Positions 4,801 to 58,974 of a stretch of 64,000 nt of DNA are shown here, one piece after another. The notes under the pieces were generated by a model. The model saw only the letters and a list, made by a program, of their open reading frames with translations. It did no database searches and was not told the origin of the DNA. The stretch comes from Mobula hypostoma (Eukaryota). Each line of letters opens with the position of its first letter. The first letter of the stretch is position 1. Made by a program: the position numbers and the translations under genes. The stretch is taken from positions 20,400,001 through 20,464,000 of the forward strand of contig NC_086097.1 of NCBI RefSeq assembly GCF_963921235.1, given 5' to 3'.

Positions 4801-5018
4801 CAGACAAGAGAAAGTCTGCAGATGCTGGAAATCCAAGCAACACACAGAAAGTGCTGGAGGAACTCAGCAAGTCAGGCAGCATCTATGGAAAAGAGTAAAC
4901 AGTCGATGTTTCTTTTCTGTCTGCTCCTGATGCAGGGTCTCGGCTTGAAACGTCAACTGTTCTCTTTTCTGTAAATGCTGCCTGGCCTGCTGAGTTCCTC
5001 CCGCATTTTGTGTGTGTT
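4801..5018. mobile_element. Fold-back Penelope pLTR unit with hammerhead variant
   Basis: Inverted arms (tgctggaggaactcagc.../gctgagttcctcc...), CTGATGC...GAAACGTC at 4927-4954, flanking repeats gatccgtggacca / gatctgtagacca. Confidence 0.75.
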
Positions 5019-10844: not shown

Positions 10845-11370
10845 GTAATTTTGGATATGAGCAGTTTTGGATCCCTGAACTAAGAAAAGGTTTGGAGAGG
10901 GTCTGGAAGAGGTTTATGAGAATGATTCTGAGAATGAAAGGGTTAGCTGTGAGGTGCGCTTGATGATTCTGAGCCTGTACTTGCTGGAGTTTGGAAGAGT
11001 GATGGGGATTTCATTAAAACCTATGGAATATTGAAAAGCCTAGGTAGAGTGGATGTGGAGAGGTTGTTTCTTCGAGCAGGGGATTCTAAGACCGGGGGCG
11101 CAGCTTCAGAATAGAAAGACGCCCATTTAGAACAGATGATGAATTTCTTTAGCCAGAGAGTGGTGAACCTGTGGAACTTATTGCCACAGACGAATGTGAA
11201 GGTCATCGTTGACTATATTTAAGGTGGAGGTTGATAGGTTCTTGATTAGTTGGGGCTTCGAAGGTTACGAGGAATGGGATTAAAAGGGATAATAAATCAG
11301 CCCTGATGGAATGGCATAGCAGAATCAATGGGCTGAATGGCCCATTTCAGCTTTTGTGTCTTCTGATTTA
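10845..11370 (+). mobile_element. CR1 3' fragment
   Basis: Degenerate ORF2 C-terminus and 3' UTR (gaatttctttagccagagagtggtgaacctgtggaa...gggctgaatggcc). Confidence 0.85.
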
Positions 11371-11471
11371 AATCAGAGAATATAGTGTTGTGTTTAGTGT
11401 AGTGGATATAGAATAGTAGTTGGTGTTTACCAGTCTGTTACTAACCAGCATTTGTAATGTTTGTTTCTCAG

Positions 11472-11544
11472 TACTATGCCTTGCAAATACTGGAAAATGT
11501 GATTAAAACACGTTGGAAAATACTTCCCAGAAATCAATGTGAAG
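11472..11544 (+). CDS. XPO1: Exportin-1 exon 4
   Basis: tcag|YYALQILENVIKTRWKILPRNQCE-G|gtgag, 73 nt. Confidence 0.97.
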
Positions 11545-11629
11545 GTGAGTCATGCTGTTCTCTTTCTCTTGGTGAGTGGGGTGGGGAGGAAAGATCGTTA
11601 TTAATATTTTCCATTTTTCTTTCTTGCAG

Positions 11630-11685
11630 GAATAAAAAAATATGTTGTGGGTTTAATTATTAAAACATCGTCTGAGACTTTGGAG
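11630..11685 (+). CDS. XPO1: Exportin-1 exon 5
   Basis: gcag|(G)IKKYVVGLIIKTSSETLE|gtaaa, 56 nt, after an 85-nt intron. Confidence 0.93.
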
Positions 11686-12494: not shown

Positions 12495-13280
12495 TAACCA
12501 CAAGTCAGAAGAGCAGAATTAAGCCATCCAGCCATCAAGGCTGTTCCGCCATTCCATCATGGCTGATTTATTTTCTCTCTTGATCCGATTCTCCTGCCTT
12601 CTCCCTGTAACCTTTGACACCCTTATCAAGAACCTATCAGCCTCTGCTTTCAATATACCCAATGTCTTGGCCTCTACAGCTACCTGTAGCATTGAATTCT
12701 ATAGATTCTCCATTCTCTGGCTGAAGAAATTCCTCCTCATCTTTGTTCTGACAGGAGGCTATTTTATTCTTGAGGTTGTGCTCTCTAGTTCTAGATTCTG
12801 CCACTACTGAAAGCATCCTCTCCATGTCCATACTATGCAGGCCTTTAAATAATCAGTAAGTTTTAGTGAGATGCTCCTCGTCCTTCTAAACTCCAGTGGG
12901 TACAGGGCAGGGCTATCCTTCTTAAAGTCCAGCACCTCCTCCATTAATGTGGGATCATTCCTAAGAAACCTCCTCTGGACCCTCTCTATTGTCAGCACGT
13001 CCATCCTTAGATAAAAGGCCCAAAACTGCTCAAAATAATCCAGATGTGATTTGACCAACATCTTATAAAACCTCAGCACTGCAACCCTGTGTTTATATTC
13101 TAGTCCTCTCGAAGCGAATACTAACATTGTATTTGCCTTCCTTACCACAGTCTCAACCTGCAAGTTAATCTTTAGGGAATCCTGCACACAGACTTCCAAG
13201 TCCCTTTGCACCTCCTGATTTTGGAATTTTCTTCCAGTTTAGGAATAGTCTATGCATTTATTCCTTCTACCAAAGTGCTG
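12495..13280 (-). mobile_element. CR1 3' fragment
   Basis: QRDLEV.VQDSLK, GLEYK, IERVQRRF motifs and 3' UTR. Confidence 0.88.
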
Positions 13281-20774: not shown

Positions 20775-20966
20775 AACACAAAATGCTGCAGGAACTCAGC
20801 AGGTCAGGCAGCATCTGTAGAGGGGAATAAATACTCGACGTTTTGGGCAGAGTCCTGGTGAAGGGTCTCGGCCGGAAATGTCTACTGTTTATTCCCCTCA
20901 ATACGTGCTGCCTGACCTGCTGAGTGCCTCCAGCATGCTGTGTGTGCTGCTCTGGATTTCCAGCAC
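20775..20966. mobile_element. Fold-back Penelope pLTR unit
   Basis: Same inverted arms; decayed hammerhead at 20851-20886. Confidence 0.75.
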
Positions 20967-23688: not shown

Positions 23689-23779
23689 TACATACTTTAT
23701 ACATCCATAGAGTGACGCTAGGCATAGGTGTGTCTGTACATAAAGGTGACTCTAACACAAGATGATAAAGTAGTGGTGG

Positions 23780-24240
23780 GCAAACACGAGGAAATATGCA
23801 GATGCTGGAATTTCAAGCAACACACATCAAAGTTGCCGGTGAACGCAGCAGGCCAGGCAGCATCTCTAGGAAGAGGTACAGTCAACGTTTCGGGCCGAGA
23901 CCCCTCGTCAGGACTAACTGAAGGAAGAGCTAGTAAGAGATTTGAAAGTGGGAGGGGGAGGGGGAGATCCAAAATGATAGGAGAAGACAGGAGGGGGAGG
24001 GATAGAGCCAAGAGCTGGACAGGTGGACAGGCAAAAGGGATATGAGAGGATCATGGGACAGGAGGCTCAGGGAGAAAGAAAATGGGGAGGGGTGAAAACT
24101 AGAGGATGGGCAAGGGGTATAGTGAGAGGGACAGAGGGAGAAAAAGGAGAGAGAGAAAAAGAATGTGTGTATATAAATAAATAACGGATGGGGTATGAGG
24201 GGGAGATGGGGCATTAGCGGAAGTTTGAGAAGTCAATGTT
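23780..24240 (-). mobile_element. 5'-truncated Penelope-like insertion
   Basis: ORF tail NIDFSNFR* (24240->24214), purine-rich UTR and pLTR very similar to 50901-51334. Confidence 0.85.
23880..23915 (-). ncRNA. Minimal hammerhead motif in Penelope 3' end
   Basis: reverse complement agtc CTGACGA g gggt-ctcg-gccc GAAA cg TT gact (GUU triplet). Confidence 0.75.
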
Positions 24241-24542
24241 CTAAGTGTTGATCAGCCTTACTGCCAAGTCCATAAGCAGGGTGGATGGGATCCTTCATGA
24301 AGTTGCTGTTTTTTTCCGGCACCTGTCTGTATACATGTCCTTGGTGGTGGGTAGGCTGGTGCCAGTGATGCATTGTTGCCCTTTCCTGTCCACCGCATGC
24401 AGTGGTGCAGCATGTTAAGATGCTGTCTGCTGCGCATCTGTAGGACGAATATTGACGTACAGAGTCCAGCTTCCTTCAGCCTCCTTGCTGTTCGCCTTGC
24501 AATACCTGGTGTTAGACCTGATGTTAATTTGTCTATTTGCAG

Positions 24543-30179: not shown

Positions 30180-30730
30180 TGATGCTGGAAATTCAGAGTT
30201 ACAGTAAGCATGCAAAATGCTGGAGGAACTCAGCAGGTCAGGCAGCGCGGCATCTATGAAGAGGGATAAGCAGTCAACGGTTCAGGCTGAGTCCCTTCAT
30301 CAGCACCCTGGATCGACCCCACGACACTCCTGATGATCAGTCTCAGCCTGAAACGTTGACTGTTTATCTCTTTCCATAAATGCTGCCTGATCTGCTGATT
30401 TCCTCCAGATTTTTATATGCATTATCTAAATTTGGACAGTTGAATCTCCTTCCTGTTCTCCCATGGTCCACTCTCCTCTCCTATCAGATTCCTTCCTCTC
30501 CAGCCCTTTGTCTTTCCTACCTACCTGGCTTCACCTATCACCTTCGAGCTAGCCTCCTTCCCTTTCCCCAACCTTTTTATTCTGCCTTCTTTTCTAGTCG
30601 TGAAGGAGGGTCTTGACCCAAAATGTCAACTGTTTACTCTTTTCCATAGATGTTGCCTGACTTGCCGAGTTCCTCCAGCATTTTGTGCGTGTTGCTCTGT
30701 ATATCAAGCATCTGCAGAATTTCTTGTGTT
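30180..30730. mobile_element. Penelope pLTR fold-back plus an adjacent pLTR/UTR fragment
   Basis: Hammerhead-like copies at 30272-30306 (-), 30327-30361 (+) and about 30596-30631 (+, decayed). Confidence 0.7.
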
Positions 30731-33231: not shown

Positions 33232-34849
33232 GTGAGTGTGCTTTTAACTGGCGATGAAGATTGTGAAAATGAAGCAAAGTGGAGTTCAGGGATCAGGCGA
33301 ACTGTGCTTCACCTTGGATTCTCCACGTCTACCATTCTTCAAGAACTCTCTGTCTCTGTCTCTCTCTTTATCTGTAACTGCCCTGTGCAGGCACCTTCAG
33401 TGCTAATGTTTGAAGGTAATGCTGAATATCTCCTCAGAGGCTATACAGGATGAGTAAATCTGGCCTTCCCAGCAACACCTGTCTTGTCAGTGAACGAGCA
33501 ATATTATGTGTGTATTCCAGGTGCATTCCCTGACCATTTCAGTTTCAGCTTTATTATTGCTGATGTACATCATGAAATTTGTTTTTTTTTGCAATTGCAG
33601 TACAGTGCAATACATTAACTACTGTAAGTTACTCTAAGACCAAACAAGAATCTATCAATATCTGCCTTAAATGTACATGAAGACTTAGCCTCCACAGCTG
33701 CCTGCTACAAAGAATTCCACAGACTCACCACTCTCCGGCTAAAGAAATTCCTCCTCATCTCCATTCTAAAAGGAAGTCCCTCTATTCTAATCACAAACAA
33801 GAGAAAATCTGCAAATGCTGGAAATCTGAGCAACACACACAAAATGTTGGAGGAACTCAGCAGGCCAGGCTGCATCTAGGAAAAGAATGGCCTGCCGAAG
33901 GGTTTCGGCCCAAAATGTAGATGATTTATTTTTTTACTCTTTTGCAAGATGCTGCCTGGCCCGAGGCTCTTTCATCACAAGAAACATCTTCTCCACATCC
34001 ACTCTATTAAGGCCTTTCACCATTCGATAGGTTTCAATTAGGTCACCCCTCATTCTTCTAAATTCCAGTGAGTAAAGGCCCAGAGCCATCAAACACTCTT
34101 CAGATGACAAGCCATTCAAGCCATTAGTGGTTGTTCTGACCACTACACTACTGAGCCACCCCATATCTGTTATATCCACATAATTCCATAGCTCCGGAGT
34201 CCCTACCAGTTAGAATGAGCTGGTGTAAAATTTCTCTTAGTTGCCTTGAGGAAGAACATAGAACAAAAATAGTACAGCCCAGGATATTGTGCGGAACCAA
34301 TTAAATTAGTAATCAAATGGCTAAACTAATCCCTTCTGCCTTCACAATGTCCATATCCCTCCATATTTCTCAGATCCATGTGCCTATCTAAATATCTCTT
34401 AAAAGCCCCTAATGTATTTGCCCCTATCACCACCCCAGGCAGCACATGCCTTGCACCCACCAATCTCTGTTAATAAAACTTGCCCCACACATCTCCTTTG
34501 AAATTTCCTCTCTCTCAGTAAATACATGCCCTCTGGTACAGTATTAGACATTTCAGCCTGGGAGTAAGATTCTGTCTGCTCTATCTGTGCCTTTCATAAT
34601 CTTATAAACCTCTGTCAAATCTCCCCTCAGCCTCCAGGGAAAATAACCCAAGTTTGTCCAATCTCTCGTTAAAGACGTGACTCATTTTTGGGTGAATCTC
34701 TGCTCATAGCACTTAATAATATTACACAGCTGTCCTGACCCGGACACTGTCATTTGACACGACTTTGGTCACAATGAAAGCTGCTCGGTTCGGAGGTGGT
34801 GTTGGAAGTGGCCTTTGCCGTTAGAACTTCCTTTGTCTACTGTTGGTCT

Positions 34850-35870: not shown

Positions 35871-37436
35871 CAAGCAGGCGTTTTCCACGGAGGTTGTGTG
35901 AGATTAGAACTAGAGGTCCCAGGGTAGGGGTGAATGAAAGATAAAGTTTTTAAGGGGAACTTCTTCACTCAGTGTGGTGTGAGTGTGGAACGAGCTTACG
36001 GGTCCTGATGTAGGGGCCCGACCTGAAACGTTGACCACCCCTCTCCTCTGCCTCCACAGATGCTGTCTGACCTGCTGAGTTCACCCATCAGCTTGTTTTG
36101 ACTTAGTCCTGTGAGTCAAGATTGCTTAATGCCATTTCCAGTACACGAGTGCAAAAAACAATAGTGTGTCTGCATCCGAAGAAGTACAAAACACAATACA
36201 ATAAAGAACACAATAATAACAAAAATCAGAATAAATATAAATGCAGAAGGTAGTTGCAAACAGGAGAAAATCTGTAGGCGCTGGAAATCGGCAGGACGTA
36301 AGGGCCCTGAGGAAGTATCTCGGCCCAAGACGTCGACTGTACATTTTTCCATAGATGCTGCCTGACCTGCTGAGCTCCTCCAGCATTTTGTTTGTGTTAC
36401 ATAAGATAGTTTATCAGACTAGATTGGTTAATCGCCCATAAGGTGACGGTAGGCACAGAAATGTCTTTACATAAGGTGACTGACAGGAAATGATAAAGTA
36501 GTGGTGGTGGGTGGGTTTGTGGATGGAGGTGTAGATCAGCCTTACTGCTGGGGAAAAGTAACTGTTTTTGAGTCCAGTGGTCCTGGCATGGATGCTACAT
36601 AGCCGCCTCCCTGATGGGAGGGGGGTAAATGATCCTTGAGCAGGGTGGGTGGGATCCTTCACGATGTTACTGGCCCTGTTCTGGCACCTTTTTGTATATA
36701 CACTACTATACAGACGTCCTGGGCGCATGTATATAGCTTGGGTGTCCTGGAGTTTTGCACAGTACTGTAGTAATTTTAAGTATTGTTTTGTACTGCTGCC
36801 ATTTTAAAAATAAAACAACAAATTTCATGACATACGTGAGTAATGATGTACTTGATTCTGCTGTGGGTCCCTATTGAGGACTGGGAGTGGGAAGGGGGTA
36901 TGGAGAGGGGAATCGTGGTTGGGAAGAGGGGAAGGGTGAGAGGAAGGAGTGGAAAGCACCAGAGAGACATTCTGCCATAAACCAATTGTTCAGAATCAAA
37001 CGACCTTGCCTGGTGTCTCAGGGCTGGTTGTGACTGCACCCACTCCACCACTCTTTCCCCCCCCCCCCAATCCCTGGCACTGCATCTCTGCCACCTGTCC
37101 CACACCCCTCCCGTGACGCTGCACCCTTGCCATTCCCAAAATCCTTTGCTCTCGCTGGGTTTACAAACTCATTCGCTGCTCCACTTTGACAAATACAGTA
37201 CTGTACGAAAGTCTTAGATACTCCAGCTGTATGTATGTGCCTAAAACTTTTTTGCACAGCGCCCGATGTCTTTGACGGTGGGTAGACTGGTGCCGGTGAT
37301 GCGTTGGACAGTTTTGACTACCCATTGTAAAGCCTTCCTGTCCACCACAGTGCAGTTTCCGTACCAGCTTTAAGGGCAAATTAAATCCGGATGCTACATG
37401 ACGGTTATTTTGTGTTTTTTTTTCCCTTTGTTTCAG

Positions 37437-50607: not shown

Positions 50608-50714
50608 GTGAAGTTGTTACCAAGCAGCCGTTGATCAAAAGCATGAGGACGGTGAAGAGGGAGACGTTGAAACTGATTTCGGGGTGGGTGAGCCGGTCTT
50701 CGGACCCGCAGCTG
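50608..50714 (+). CDS. XPO1: Exportin-1 exon 19
   Basis: tcag|(G)EVVTKQPLIKSMRTVKRETLKLISGWVSRSSDPQL|gtaag, 107 nt. Confidence 0.96.
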
Positions 50715-50964
50715 GTAAGTGCACGCGGTTCATCCTAACCACCTGGACTGATCCGTAGCTCCAGTTCCAATTGCAGTGCTTCTCTCAAAGGTTTCGTCCA
50801 CTGCTGTAAATGAAATTCATTTAGGGCACTGATGGTTTTTATTGTGGTTTTTCTGTTCTCCAGTTTATGTGAGCTGACATCCTGTTGCCTTTTATCACCT
50901 AACACACTTTATCAAAGTTGCTGGTGAACGCAGCAGGCCAGGCAGCATCTCTAGGAAGAGGTAC

Positions 50965-51000
50965 AGTTGACGTTTCAGGCTGAGACCTTTCGTCAGGACT
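50965..51000 (-). ncRNA. Minimal hammerhead motif (antisense copy)
   Basis: reverse complement agtc CTGACGA a aggt-ctca-gcct GAAA cg TC aact; one stem I mismatch. Confidence 0.7.
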
Positions 51001-51370
51001 AACTGAAGGAAGAGCTAGTAAGAGATTTGAAAGTGGGAGGGGGGGAGATCCAAAATGATAGGAGAAGACAGGAGGGGGAGGGATGGAGCCAAGAGCTGGA
51101 CAGGTGATCGGCAAAAGGGATATGAGAGGATCATGGGACAGGAGGCCCAGGGAGAAGGAAAAGGGGGACGGGGGGAAAACCCAGAGGATGGGCAAGGGGT
51201 CTAGTCAGAGGGACAGAGGGAGAAAAAGGAGAGAGAAAGAGAAAGAATGTGTATATGAATAAATAAGTAACGGATGGGGTACGAGGGGGAAGTGGGCATT
51301 AGCGGAAGTTTGAGAATTCAATGTTCATGCCATCCCACTTTCAAACCTCTTACTAGCTCTTCTTTCAGTT

Positions 51371-51406
51371 AGTCCTGACGAAGGGTCTCGGCCCGAAACG
51401 TCGACT
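51371..51406 (+). ncRNA. Minimal type I hammerhead ribozyme motif (Penelope pLTR), core intact
   Basis: agtc CTGACGA a gggt-ctcg-gccc GAAA cg TC gact: stem I agtc/gact, CUGANGA core, stem II hairpin, GAAA, GUC triplet (predicted cut after 51402). Confidence 0.8.
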
Positions 51407-51619
51407 GTACCTCTTCCTAGAGATGCTGCCTGGCCTGCTGCGTTCACCAGCAACTTTTATGTGTATTGCTTGAAATTCCAGTGTCTGCAGATTTCCTGGT
51501 GTTTGCCTTTTACCACCTTCTGCTTCTGGGGAGGCACACTGCATAACTTTTTGGGGAGAATGTGCATGCTGGGCCAAACCACCCTGTCCCTGATGGAGTG
51601 CAGTGTAGGGAAGTGTATG

Positions 51620-52146
51620 GTTATGTACTTCGGAGGTTCCTCCTGAGTGCATGTTTCTGGACTTCTGTAGCTCATCTAATTCAAGGTCTGACGTGTTGTG
51701 CATTCAGCGATGCTCTGCTGCACATCACTGTTATAATACGTGGTTATTTTAAGTTACCGTTGCCCTTCTTTAAGCTTGACCCAGTTTGGCCATTCTCCTC
51801 CGACCTCCCTCAGTAACAAGGTGTTTCCGTCCACAGAATTGCACTCACTGGATGCTTTTGGTTTCTCACGCCATTCTCTGTGAACTCTAGAGACGGTTGT
51901 CGGTGAAAATCCCAGAAGTTCAACCATTTCTGAGATACTCAGACCACCCCATCTGGCACCAGCAGTCATTCCACGGTCAGAGTCAGTTAGATCACATTTG
52001 TTCCCCATCCTGATGTTTGGGCTGAACAACTGAACCTCTTGACCATGTCTGCGTGCTTTTATGCATTGAGTTGCTACCACATAATTGGCTGATTAAATAT
52101 TTGCATTAATGAGCAGGTGTACCTAATATAGCGGTTACTGAGTGTA
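51620..52146 (-). mobile_element. Non-autonomous Tc1 deletion derivative (same family as 42057-42599)
   Basis: MGNKCDLTDSDRGMTAGARWGGLSISEMVELLGFSPTTVSRVHREW is a Tc1 transposase N-terminal HTH; right TIR ends ...actgagtg-TA. Confidence 0.8.
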
Positions 52147-52832
52147 CGCTGCACATTGCTGCCTTCCTATATTAATATCCAAGACTGGAACGTGAATAGA
52201 TACAGTCCTCTGGAGCAGGAGTCTCTCCTGGTATACAGTACTGTGCAGAGGGCTCAGGCTCATGTATATAGCTGGGGTGCCCAAGGCTTTTGCACAGTAC
52301 TGTATTTGTCAACGTGGAGTGGAGAGAGAGTTTGTAAATCTGGTGGGAGCAAAGAAAGTTGGGAAAGGTGAGGGTAGAGCACTGCGGGATTGGGTGTGGG
52401 ACAGGGGGCAGAGGAGAGCCGGCGTGGGGGCTGTCGCAGGTGCAGACACACCCAACCCTGAGACACCAGGCAAGGAAATTTGATTCCAAACACTTACTTT
52501 GATCATTACAGAATGCTTCTCTAGTGCTTCCCGCTCCCTCCCCTCTCCCTGCCCCTTTTCCCAACCATGATTCCCCTCTTCCTGCCCCTTTCCACTCTCA
52601 GTCTACAATAGAGACCCAGATCAGAATCAGGTTTATCATCACTCGTGTGTTATGAAATTTGTTTAATTTTGTTGCAGCGGTGCAATACATAAAATTATAA
52701 CAGTAATGTGCAAAAATCTTGTCAGAATTAATCTGTTTAAGCAGCTTGCACGGCCCTTTTAGTCTCATGTGAAAACTGGCCGGCCTCGCTCTGCTTTAGA
52801 CCCTTCACAGGCTTCACTCTCCCTGTCCTCAG

Positions 52833-53027
52833 GTTGCGGAAAACTTTGTGCCCCCGCTGCTCGATGCCGTGTTGATCGACTACCAGAGGAACGTCCCCGC
52901 AGCCCGCGAGCCCGAGGTGCTGAGTACCATGGCCACCATAGTGAACAAGCTGGAGAACCACATCACGGCAGAGGTCCCGCAGATCTTTGACGCCCTGTTT
53001 GAGTGCACGCTGGAAATGATCAACAAG
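52833..53027 (+). CDS. XPO1: Exportin-1 exon 20
   Basis: tcag|VAENFVPPLLDAVLIDYQRNVPAAREPEVLSTMATIVNKLENHITAEVPQIFDALFECTLEMINK|gtagt, 195 nt. Confidence 0.97.
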
Positions 53028-55144
53028 GTAGTTGGTGGTCTGATCAGCGGAAATGTGACTTCTAACTTTTATTTCATTTAGAGACAGCGCGGTAACAGGT
53101 CTTCGCAGAGCCCGTGCCTCCCAGTTAAACCCATGTGACAAATTAACCTGCTAACCCTGACTACGTTGGAATGTGGGAGGAAACTGGAGCACCCAGGCTG
53201 TCACAGGGAGAGCATACAAACTCCTTGCAGTCAGCAGCAGAGTTAAACATGGAGTTAACCGTAAGACCAAACGATATAGGAGCAGAATTAGGCCATTTGT
53301 CCCGTCGAGTCTGCTCTGCCATTTCATCATGGCTGATCCATCTTCCTTCCCAGTCGCAATCTCCTGCCGCCTTCCCATATCCTTTCATACCCTGACTAAT
53401 CAAGAGTCTTATCAAACTCTGCGTTAAATATGCCCAATGACTTGGCCTCCTCAACCGCCTGTGACAACAAATTCCACAGATTTACCGCTCTGCGAACCTG
53501 TGGAATTCTCCTAATCTGTGTTCTAAAGGTTGTCCTTGTATTCTGAGTCGGTACCCTCTGGTCCTAGACCCTCCCACTACTGGAACGTCCACTCTGTCTA
53601 ACCCTTTCAACATCCTGTCTGAGATGTAAGCCTGTGTGTCCCTTTGCTCAGTTTTCTAGAAGGGGCCACGGGCCCCCAGCGTTCTGAGTTCATGGCCTGT
53701 GTTGTCAACTCAACCACAGCTACAGCTAGTTTGATGGTAAAGTATGCCGGGCACAGCTGTACGTCTGGTTTCTGATCCATTTGCCCCACTCCTGCGACGC
53801 CTATGTTTTGGACAATTGGGTACGTGCAGGCGTACCTGCTCCGAGCAGCCCAGTCTAAGGTCTATCCTGATGGTGTGAAATGGCTGTGTAGGTGTGGTAT
53901 GGATTATTCTCTGAGGCAGTAACATTATCTCTGTTCTGTTTTTCCAGCCAGGAGATTACTTGTTTCAAAAATGTCACAATAAAAGAAAGAGTGGAACCTG
54001 TCAAATCTAATTTTATTGGATGTATTGCATATTCGTGAGTTCAGACTCACTAATGTTAGTCTTCATTTCCCACCCACGTTTGCCCATGAACTGTTTCAGA
54101 GGGCAATACAGAGATTGCTCCATCTAGACTCCCATATCGAGCAGACCAGGTAGGATGGCAGTTAGTCTTCCCTGAAGGGACTCAGTGGACATTCGGTACA
54201 ATATTTTTATTCCAGGTCTGATGCTGAATTTGTATTCATTAGCTTCGCGATGAGCTTGAGTACAGATTCATGTTCTGTTTTCTTCAACTAGTTCAGACAT
54301 TTAAACCTTTCTCCAGCATCTTCAGACTCTTGTGTATTTAGGACTTATTTTGTTATTCTATGAACTTTGAGTACTGACATATCCATTCCCCAAGTTGCAA
54401 ACGTAACGTTCTTTGATGTTTGCTCTCAATGCTGCCACGGGTGCTGACCTAACTCTAAATTCTATTACAACCAATTGTCATGACAAATCTCTCTTCTAAA
54501 TGGGTGGTGTAAGTACATGGTGGGAGATTGTTTGATATGCCGTAGTGAGTGTCCTGTGTTCTAATTTTATTGCCTTGTGAACAGCACTGGATTAAAAAAA
54601 AAAGCAGGAGTGTTTCTGATTTGGAACACACCATTTTTGGGAGTTGAACTGAATGCTGTTTTGCCCTCCTTGGGTACAAGTTATTCTGATTGCTACCACT
54701 GACCCTCCTATAGGCATCTAATACGGAGACAAGATGTGAATGAAGGCATGACAGAGTCACAAGGCTAGAAAAACATAATACTCCACACTCTTCCCCTCTG
54801 TTCGTGTGAAAGATTTATCCAGATCCCCCTTGGATTTGGACTGTGTGTAATTGCCATATATTCTCCACCCTTCCTGCGTTCCTCTGATTCAACAAAACAC
54901 ATCAGTTGATCATTAAACCTCAAACACGTGCTTCAAAACAAGAAAGAAGTGCTGCAAATGTGCTTGGCAGAGTACAAATGGCATTTTAAAATGCGCAAGT
55001 TGTATTGTTCTTCAGTGAATTTGGATTAGGATTAATGGGCATAGACTCTTTAACATTGTGTGCTTATGAAAACACAGGGCAGACAATACAAAGGTTCAAA
55101 ATGTTGTATTTTCAAGTATTTAATTTTTCTTTCTTCCCCTCTAG

Positions 55145-56762: not shown

Positions 56763-58361
56763 GTGAGTTGCATTTTACTTTCAGTCTGGTCCCTTCCCAT
56801 GCAACGTTATGGGTGTAGAGTACGACGGAAGGCTCCTTCAGCAAGGTGCTGGGTTAACGTTGGAGCACTAGGCAAGGAGAAGGGAGGTGGGATGTGGTAC
56901 AAGTCTCAGCAATGCTGTTTAGATCTGACTCTGTCGCTCGTAGAATGTTACAGCACAGCTACAGGCCTTTTGGCCCGTGATGTTGTACTGACCCTTTGTC
57001 CTACAATCTAACCCAACATAGCCCTCCATTTTCTATCATCCAGTGGTTCTATTTACCATCAGAGAACGTATTCCATATACAACATGAAATTCTTACTCTC
57101 CGCAGACATCCTTGAAATGGAAAAAACCCAAAGAATGAATGAAAGAAAAAACGTAAGATCCCCAAGTCCCCTGCCCCCTTCCACGCATAAGCAGCATCAA
57201 TCCTAACCCCGCCCCGCACTTACTCTAGCATAAAGCATCAGCATTCCCTCCACCCACCATACTAGCAACAGCAAAGCCCCCAAAGAGAGACCATGGTCTA
57301 CAGTACGTCAAAAACTAACTGTTCGTTCCAACAATTTGACGTCCCTCAGGCTCCCTATGATGTGACCTGAACTGAGCACAATATTCCAAGTGTGGTCTAT
57401 CCAGGTATTTATAGATCTGCAATGTTACATTGCAGCCCTTGAGCTCAGTGCTTTGATTAATGAAGGCCAATACACCGTATGCCTTCTTAATCCTAACAAC
57501 TCTACAGCAACTCTGAGGAGTCTATGGACATGGACCCCAAGATCCCTTTGTTGCTCCACACTTGATGTAGAACTGAAAGGTGCGTAGCTCTCTGACGGAG
57601 GAGTTTTCTGTACTGTCCCGAGGGGTCTCGGCCTGAAACGTCGTCTGTTTGTCCATCTTCATAGATGCTGCCTGACCTGCTGAGTTGCTCCAGCGTTTTG
57701 TGGGTGTGTGTGTTTTACATGCTAGCCTTCATTGGTCAGTAGGTTGAGGACAGGAGTTGGGATGCCACCAGATGCTGGTGAGATCGTGCTTGGAGAATTG
57801 TGCACAGTTCTGATCGCCCATCTATGGGCAGGATGTCAGTAATCTGGAAAGGGTGCAGGAAAGATTCGTGAGGTTTGTTACCGGGACTGGATGGTTTTGA
57901 GTTCCAAGGAAAAGCTGGAGGTGCTGGGATATTTTCCCTGGAGCATAGAGGCCTGAAGGGTGACCAAGGAGGCATAAAAAATCATGAGGGGCATGGATAA
58001 GGTGGATGATCCCAGTGCAGGGAAATCTTGAACAATAAGGACATAGACACGGTGAGAGGGGAAATATTCAGAGAAGACATGAAAGGCAGGCTTTTCACAC
58101 AGACGGTGGTGGGTCTGTGGAGGGGGCTGCCAGAGGGAGTGGTGGAGGCAGATGCAGTTAAAATCCTCTAAAGACATTCGAGCAGGTATGTGGATAGGAA
58201 AGGCTTTGAGGAATATTGGTCAAATACAGGCAAGTGGGACCAGCTCAGGTGGACATCTTAGTCAGCATGGATGAGATGGGCTCTTTCAGTGCTGTGTAAC
58301 TCTTTGACTCCCACCACCCTCGTTCTAAACTTCATGTTTAATGGATTCCTCTCTCCACCAG

Positions 58362-58524
58362 GGTTGACGATGCACGCTACCATCTTGGCTTACATGTTCA
58401 GCTTGGTGGAGGATGGCCGAATCACTTTGTCTCTGAGCCCATCGACTCCCAACGTGAATAATCAGATCTTCGTGCAGGAGTTTGTGGCCAACCTGCTGAA
58501 AACTGCCTTCCCTCACCTCCAGGA
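58362..58524 (+). CDS. XPO1: Exportin-1 exon 23
   Basis: ccag|(G)LTMHATILAYMFSLVEDGRITLSLSPSTPNVNNQIFVQEFVANLLKTAFPHLQ-D|gtaag, 163 nt. Confidence 0.96.
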
Positions 58525-58974
58525 GTAAGTGCTGATAGATGAAAACGTAACGTGGTGAAATTGATGCCCTGTTCCCTGAGCCGTGCTAGTGGGTGGGGTG
58601 GTGAAGATGTTGGAAAGTGTGCCCTTCCTGAAGAAGGGTCTTGGCCAGAAACGTTGACTGTTTACTCTTTTCCATAGATGCTGCCTGGCCTGCTGAACTC
58701 CTCCAGCTTTTTATGTGTGTGTGTTGCAGTATCTTTACAAGATGGCTGACCCCAGCCATTATCAATACTCCTCAGGGATTGTCTGCCTGGTGTCAGTAGT
58801 CATATAATCAGGACTTGTGATTTGCACCGGCTGCTCGTACGACCATCCACCACCTTCATGTGACCCTGATCAGGGTCCGGGGCGGGGTGGGGGGAGGGTT
58901 GCTAAGCAGGTGCTATACCTGGGAAGGAGCACCTTACATCTCCTTTGATAGAGACGTATCTCCACCCCATCACC

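Follow-up and report, generated by a model that had tools for sequence, protein, structure and literature searches.

A minimal hammerhead motif behind its own antisense copy in an XPO1 intron of a ray: a head-to-head insertion of a Penelope-like element

The 602-nt insertion (50901-51502) found in an intron of the exportin-1 gene (XPO1/CRM1) is an ordinary copy of a described layout, one of thousands in the genome, and it was very probably left by a single integration of a Penelope-like element (PLE) that deposited two 5'-truncated copies head to head, as a near-neutral passenger in which masking of the hammerhead motif is redundant. Positions are those of the window, the whole 64,000-nt stretch of DNA that was analysed (C1:20400001-20464000; genome 3.48 Gb). 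A sequence-only reading of the same stretch had proposed that a core-intact hammerhead on the sense strand of an essential gene either cuts the intron co-transcriptionally or is silenced by its own upstream antisense copy, the latter accounting for the tolerance of such insertions.

The course of events that we favour would have begun with a high-copy, endonuclease-bearing PLE inserting once into the XPO1 intron, with both target strands primed and the two cDNAs presumably joined where each had stopped. Each arm brings the minimal hammerhead of the element. The arms are predicted to form a hairpin of ~130 bp in the pre-mRNA, which may undergo A-to-I editing like other intronic inverted repeats and would be spliced out together with the intron. 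The motif would be silent mainly because helix III, a partner and the element protein are missing, with the duplex as an extra, redundant block.

The window carries the XPO1 gene on its + strand, with 23 coding exons inside the window and one more just past its end. The 65 residues encoded by the exon at 52833-53027 are 100% identical to a protein labelled exportin-1-like from Mobula birostris, and the same exon also matches solved exportin-1 structures. The host intron and its neighbours are as follows:

50608-50714, + strand: XPO1 coding exon 18 (107 nt), which precedes the host intron, placed by tblastn with XPO1 proteins and with AG/GT borders.
50715-52832, + strand: host intron of 2,118 nt, flanked by coding exons 18 and 19.
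52833-53027, + strand: XPO1 coding exon 19 (195 nt), which follows the host intron.

The insertion starts 186 nt past the 5' splice site of this intron, and the putative cut (51402/51403) would lie 1,430 nt ahead of the 3' splice site. The earlier label of intron 19 holds only if a non-coding first exon, which human XPO1 presumably has, is included in the count; by coding exons the intron lies between 18 and 19 and the label fails. Contigs from four of 24 sequencing runs were compared with 51290-53100, an interval that leaves the upstream arm and the upstream exon outside, and the contigs from two of these runs, which are guessed to be RNA, align with the downstream exon from border to border (52832-53028) and measure 3,942 and 2,527 nt. 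Exact matches at exon borders are the pattern expected of spliced mRNA in these probable RNA runs. One DNA run, bearing another organism label, gave a contig that crosses the right junction of the insertion; it reaches 30 bases into the element, one below the bar of the tool.

The essentiality ascribed to the window copy of the gene was not borne out, because C22 (62.45-62.52 Mb) carries another XPO1 gene, which seems to be complete. The three exons examined in that gene are open, with 92-94% protein identity to a fish XPO1 and 74-79% DNA identity to the window XPO1. The PLE insertion is absent from the matching intron of this paralogue, and a 6-kb piece of the paralogue holds one decayed antisense remnant of the element. 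Two further observations concern XPO1 sequence: a single-piece, stop-riddled match to XPO1 residues 4-80 (C52:29716006-29716236) is possibly a processed pseudogene fragment, and a 419-nt, 68% inverted repeat of a different family (window 10974-11368 and 12496-12906) flanks two small XPO1 exons at about 11466-11685.

The insertion and the features within it are listed in order along the window:

50885-50900, no strand: left half of the target-site duplication; its 16 nt differ from the right copy at one position.
50901-51335, - strand: long arm, a 5'-truncated Penelope-like copy, 92-95% identical to many genomic copies (identity taken from the best 40 of 8,560 candidate matches, which were scored).
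50911-51041, no strand: upstream arm of the inverted repeat, 131 nt.
50965-51000, - strand: long-arm hammerhead, in which the core is preserved and the first pair of stem I is disrupted.
51330-51460, no strand: downstream inverted-repeat arm, separated by a 288-nt spacer from the upstream one, to which it is 94% complementary.
51334-51502, + strand: short arm, an inverted and more truncated pLTR copy carrying a tail of ~35 nt.
51371-51406, + strand: minimal type I hammerhead without helix III, putative cut at 51402/51403, features as in PMC4209133.
51503-51518, no strand: right target-site duplication, 16 nt.

The two copies stand head to head between the halves of a target-site duplication whose length may be read as 13-16 nt, as the first three bases of the left copy could on the right be element tail; a 16-nt pairing with one mismatch was reached by 0 of about 3000 random window pairs. 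The long arm comprises the last 11 codons and the stop of the GIY-YIG ORF (51299-51334) followed by the 3' UTR/pLTR, and its tail is absent, the ~35-nt tail being found on the short arm only (about 51468-51505). The joint between the arms shows an exact microhomology of 2 nt (4/5 imperfect). The long-arm hammerhead differs by four substitutions from the sense copy and, when read on the + strand, is antisense over the sense motif. A tail of 30-40 nt on one side, an inverted truncated pLTR and a duplication, all of which were found, are characters of EN+ PLE insertions, and this anatomy together with the family comparison supports the earlier suggestion that the insertion is a pLTR-bearing element. 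An assembly artefact was considered and ruled out: the arms differ at eight sites, the duplication is present on both sides, and the joints differ among sister pairs.

Genomic sister copies of the long arm extend into a single ORF encoding RT and, at its C terminus, a GIY-YIG domain; the truncated insertion lacks this ORF, its long arm keeping the same C-terminal codons. In two of the three sister-ORF pieces that were scanned, RVT_1 (E 5.2e-05) and GIY-YIG (E 0.0035) were detected, both under Pfam cutoffs. Compared by eye with PMC8557442, these ORFs have cysteines between the two half-motifs and histidines downstream, and they carry CX4CxxC in the linker; according to the same source, a CX2-5CxxC linker motif upstream of GIY-YIG marks Neptune/Nematis as opposed to Penelope/Poseidon. 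The family thus appears, by its linker motif, to be an endonuclease-bearing PLE of the Neptune/Nematis type. The arrangement is not that of a non-LTR retrozyme, which would have at least two tandem units with a complete hammerhead in each, as the two motifs are inverted rather than tandem and a search for a second sense copy in the host intron found none, the next core-bearing one (58626) having a broken stem II.

On the XPO1 sense strand, 51371-51406 does contain every catalytic-core base, stems I and II and a GUC triplet, as had been claimed. The segment C3-A9 reads CUGACGA (51375-51381) and is followed by one extra A at 51382, between the core and stem II; stem II is formed by 51383-51385 and 51392-51394, and a U-G pair can lengthen it. 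G12-A14 occupies 51395-51397, A15.1 C G U16.1 C17 occupies 51398-51402 with the cut expected to fall at 51402/51403, and stem I (AGUC/GACU, 51371-51374/51403-51406) has four firm pairs. GAAA and the cleavage triplet are separated by C and G only, and therefore helix III cannot form within a single molecule. The core, the extra base at 9/10.1, the G10.1-C11.1 pair, the palindromic 15.2-16.2 and the missing helix III are those of a minimal hammerhead (min-HHR), whereas a canonical type I hammerhead would have helix III, a tertiary contact between loop 1 and loop 2 and a helix I of 6 bp in place of the four firm pairs seen here. Rfam gave no hammerhead match, and no match at all, across the whole window at the gathering score; at E<=10, a search of 50800-51600 returned three chance matches, none of them a hammerhead. 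The isolated motif (46 nt) folds no better than shuffled sequences (z -1.18), its best predicted fold mispairs the core, and in the predicted fold of 51340-51470, with the arm left out, stem I has a probability of about 0.03.

By itself, the motif at 51371-51406 probably does not cut. A single minimal hammerhead is described as giving no detectable cleavage and dimers and trimers as having low activity only (PMC4209133), while the hammerhead of the Anolis element is reported to cut only with its protein, to show no RNA-seq ends at the hammerhead site, and to be dispensable in its cutting for insertion (PMC11167929); the motifs behind these data are those of Schistosoma, Drosophila and Anolis, not of the ray family. 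The need for a dimer partner, which the sequence-only reading had foreseen, agrees with the absence of helix III and with the reported inactivity of the single motif (PMC4209133). Both arms of the insertion run across the cut site, and therefore their RNA templates were not cut there before copying; uncut templates would agree with the account in PMC11167929. Co-transcriptional cutting of the intron is unlikely on the same grounds, namely the inactivity of single min-HHRs (PMC4209133) and the protein requirement in Anolis (PMC11167929). In its strongest form, in which the intron is cut at 51402/51403 despite the arm and XPO1 output is tuned in the manner of CPEB3, it is so improbable as to be close to negligible: the core, stems and GUC are intact and a regulatory intronic ribozyme has a precedent in CPEB3 (PMC10919898), but helix III is absent, the intron holds no partner and the motif is predicted to be fully sequestered. 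Moreover, the 94% likeness of its arms marks the insertion as young, and the paralogue intron lacks it, in contrast to the conserved, domesticated hammerheads of other introns (PMC6155905).

The reverse-complement arm that had been noticed upstream of the motif is real and extends over 131 nt (50911-51041 against 51330-51460, 94%). As + strand RNA the arms offer Watson-Crick pairing at 123 positions, G-U pairing at 4 and a mismatch at 4 more, and among the four inverted repeats of at least 60 nt with arms less than 3 kb apart in the window this one is the most perfect. When 50885-51518 is folded, 35 of the 36 bases of the hammerhead are paired to the upstream arm with a probability of 1.0, and the predicted duplex (-251.6 kcal/mol) compares with a predicted -6.5 kcal/mol for the stem I+II fold of the motif; the long duplex over the ribozyme that nascent RNA had been supposed able to form is thus strongly favoured in silico. 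The upstream arm is transcribed first, and therefore, judging from the coordinates, about 40 nt of duplex could form before the motif is made. The match between motif and arm is far beyond chance, yet it is part of a repeat family.

Intronic inverted-repeat duplexes are, in general, plausible targets of ADAR editing. For the predicted 131-nt duplex, whose arms contain 39 and 25 adenosines, use by ADAR or Dicer would likewise be plausible. A single A>G row in the arm was seen in sequencing contigs and is present in DNA runs too, and the contigs over the arm are swamped by repeat copies from the whole genome; a literature search found no report of editing of such repeats in sharks or rays. That the hairpin itself acts on the host, by editing, a change of splicing or small RNAs silencing the family and with no catalysis involved, is very unlikely. 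The near-perfect 131-nt duplex with its 288-nt loop does stand at a distance of 186 nt from the 5' splice site, and in rotifers Penelope copies are reported to give rise to small RNAs (PMC3846280), but thousands of such hairpins are to be expected in the genome, editing, if it occurs, would be nothing unusual for an intronic repeat, and the one A>G row is shared with DNA.

The layout itself is common. An exact 34-nt motif occurs in 6,605 copies genome-wide (3,287 and 3,318 on the two strands), whereas its reversed control occurs in none. Head-to-head pairs were found, within the DNA examined, at 11 of 29 other best-matching loci, or at 7 of 25 once four loci ranked via the arm are dropped, and 11 of 13 such pairs have a duplication of 9-17 nt. 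Taking the first 15 listed exact-motif sites on C1 in order and irrespective of genic context, nine have an inverted arm within about 2.5 kb (five arms span the whole motif, two part of it and two downstream sequence only) and six have none. Such hairpins must therefore number in the thousands. In PLE insertions, as described in PMC3846280 and PMC8557442, an adjacent inverted pLTR, a tail on one pLTR and a duplication of 8-10 bp are typical and the head-to-head form is the commonest, and by this comparison the antisense arm would be a standard by-product of insertion. A sense motif comes to lie behind an antisense arm because of the head-to-head geometry, whichever strand the host gene uses, and the arrangement therefore needs no special history. 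Another pair lies 50 kb downstream of the window (C1:20514083-20514247), where 316 nt in head-to-head orientation carry both motifs in exact form.

A profile search of the window detected 24 remnants of the element end, 14 sense and 10 antisense. The core and both stems are kept in two of the 24, namely the 51371 motif, alone in this respect among the 14 sense copies, and an antisense sister at 23822. For four of the sense remnants (43834, 57619, 58626 and 61803) no inverted partner lies within 3 kb; today all of them are decayed, and they were presumably intact at the time of insertion.

Several of these remnants deserve separate description. The antisense sister (23779-24243) is a young copy, 91-93% identical, with a tail and no inverted arm, and its cleavage triplet is GUU. 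Four older, decayed head-to-head pairs lie in other XPO1 introns (4843-5014, 20778-20940, 30213-30414 and 33836-33964). Decayed sense motifs in direct orientation occur at 36002-36391, 0.3 kb apart, and at 57619-58717, 1 kb apart, and the direct-orientation spacing of these two pairs is the geometry needed by a dimeric hammerhead.

The antisense arm had been offered as the reason why the insertion is tolerated. On the evidence at hand it is not needed for this, because armless sense remnants are present in the gene and a second XPO1 gene exists; an arm is lacking at 6 of 15 exact-motif sites and a partner at 4 of 14 sense remnants. Masking is therefore plausible but unneeded as an explanation of tolerance. 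For masking to matter, the min-HHR would have to cut in vivo with the help of protein, chaperones or a trans partner, the arm would have to capture it, and armed insertions would have to survive better, and we consider this combination improbable. The predicted sequestration is complete, with about 40 nt of duplex before the motif emerges, the one intact sense copy in the XPO1 gene is armed, protein-assisted cleavage is known for the Anolis element (PMC11167929), and thousands of identical motifs exist in the genome. Against this, arms are common whatever the context, and the armless sense remnants of the same gene include two that are directly oriented and 1 kb apart (57619 and 58626). The modelled dimer, moreover, has a helix III of 4 bp and reaches -11.9 kcal/mol, far above the -32.1 kcal/mol of the best two-strand fold. 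The relevant results on intron cutting are reportedly those of Dye 2006 and Fong 2009. As recounted in PMC2995048, cutting of an intron by a working hammerhead left splicing efficient and a faster ribozyme blocked it, so that intronic hammerhead cutting as such is reported not to stop splicing, which again speaks against a need for masking.

Selection on the sense motif was also considered. All four differences between the arms inside the hammerhead lie on the antisense arm (4/4, p = 0.125), three of them being CpG transitions. This skew, together with the fact that no other of the 14 sense copies in the window keeps core and both stems, speaks against our reading, as it is the kind of trace expected if the sense copy, or its masking, were under selection. 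The skew was rejected as a signal in view of that p value and of the intactness, by the same rule, of 22 of 41 young copies in the best-matching loci anyway (hand count). According to a preprint, tandem hammerhead retrozymes are under-represented in Xenopus introns (10.64898/2026.07.22.740005), and by that analogy genic selection on hammerhead motifs can exist. A broader proposal, in which head-to-head PLE insertions muzzle themselves in both gene orientations and, should the min-HHR cut in vivo with the element protein or in trans among its thousands of identical copies, armless sense copies are purged from introns and armed ones kept, the arm being a safety catch that lets the PLE fill introns, we likewise hold to be very unlikely. 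Were it true, the more than 6,600 exact copies would be the first population-level evidence of min-HHR activity in cells. If masking were true, it would settle the in vivo activity of animal PLE min-HHRs, which PMC4209133 left open, and the inverted arm would gain selective meaning; the insertion as found matters little.

Of more general bearing, on the unsolved steps of PLE integration, is the distribution of tails and haplotypes between arms. The ~35-nt tail stands on exactly one arm, which may be the long or the short one, in 23 of 24 head-to-head pairs (13/13 and 10/11 in two sets; p = 3e-6 at even odds), the exception being locus L032 with tails on both arms; one-sided tails have been published qualitatively (PMC3846280). 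Two sites of the family are linked across 65 copies (45 C-G, 11 T-T, 8 T-G and 1 C-T; Fisher p = 9e-7, in a count where the arms of one insertion are not independent), and a 66th copy is T-A. In the insertion the long arm has the C-G haplotype and the short arm T-T (window 51008/51363 and 50913/51458). Of 18 pairs in which both sites are covered, six have arms that differ at the first site, five of these at both in the linked way, the pairs with differing arms besides this insertion being loci L004, L012, L022, L032 and L047; at other non-CpG sites the arms disagree at a rate of about 5% (hand tally). Over all polymorphic sites the arms agree in 53 of 78 comparisons, against an average of 56% for random partners, and 2% of permutations reach this value, so some pairs share a template or lineage. 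Although drawn from a small sample of a single family, these haplotypes suggest that both nicked strands are primed at two start sites, the templates often being separate RNAs or separate pLTRs of a single tandem transcript. The differences between arms could alternatively come from gene conversion. The two-template reading fits the scheme in PMC11167929 better than the fold-back self-priming proposed in PMC3846280, and of the papers listed by a literature search none was, by its title, on twin priming with Penelope-like elements.

Among known systems, the closest in layout is Pen2a_Av of Adineta vaga (PMC3846280; PMC8557442 Fig. 2), which is described with the same 5'-truncated copy beside an inverted shorter copy and, like the general PLE scheme, with the tail on one end, a short duplication and a joint with microhomology. 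The ray insertion differs from it in keeping no more than the last 11 codons of the ORF, in a duplication of 13-16 nt rather than 8-10, in the absence of a palindrome at the joint, and in belonging to a cartilaginous-fish family with a CX4CxxC linker (Neptune/Nematis type). The hammerhead corresponds to the metazoan PLE min-HHRs of PMC4209133 in its type I topology, 4-bp helix I, extra base between A9 and G10.1, G10.1-C11.1 pair, palindromic 15.2-16.2 and lack of helix III, whereas its helix II has 3-4 bp as compared with 7-8 bp in Schistosoma; pairs of min-HHRs on opposite strands, 100-700 bp apart, are already mentioned in that source. With PAc/Poseidon_Ac of Anolis carolinensis (PMC11167929) the ray element shares a hammerhead in the pLTR, uncut RNA as template, a tail between two start sites of reverse transcription and a scheme in which both target strands are nicked and extended, although the clade is different, as Poseidon lacks the cysteine motif that the ray family carries in its linker. 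RECK-type hammerheads (PMC6155905) and CPEB3 (PMC10919898) are likewise self-cleaving motifs that lie sense-oriented in introns of conserved genes; these, however, are described as conserved, few-copy and complete, whereas the ray motif is a young repeat copy without helix III in an insertion that is missing from the paralogue.
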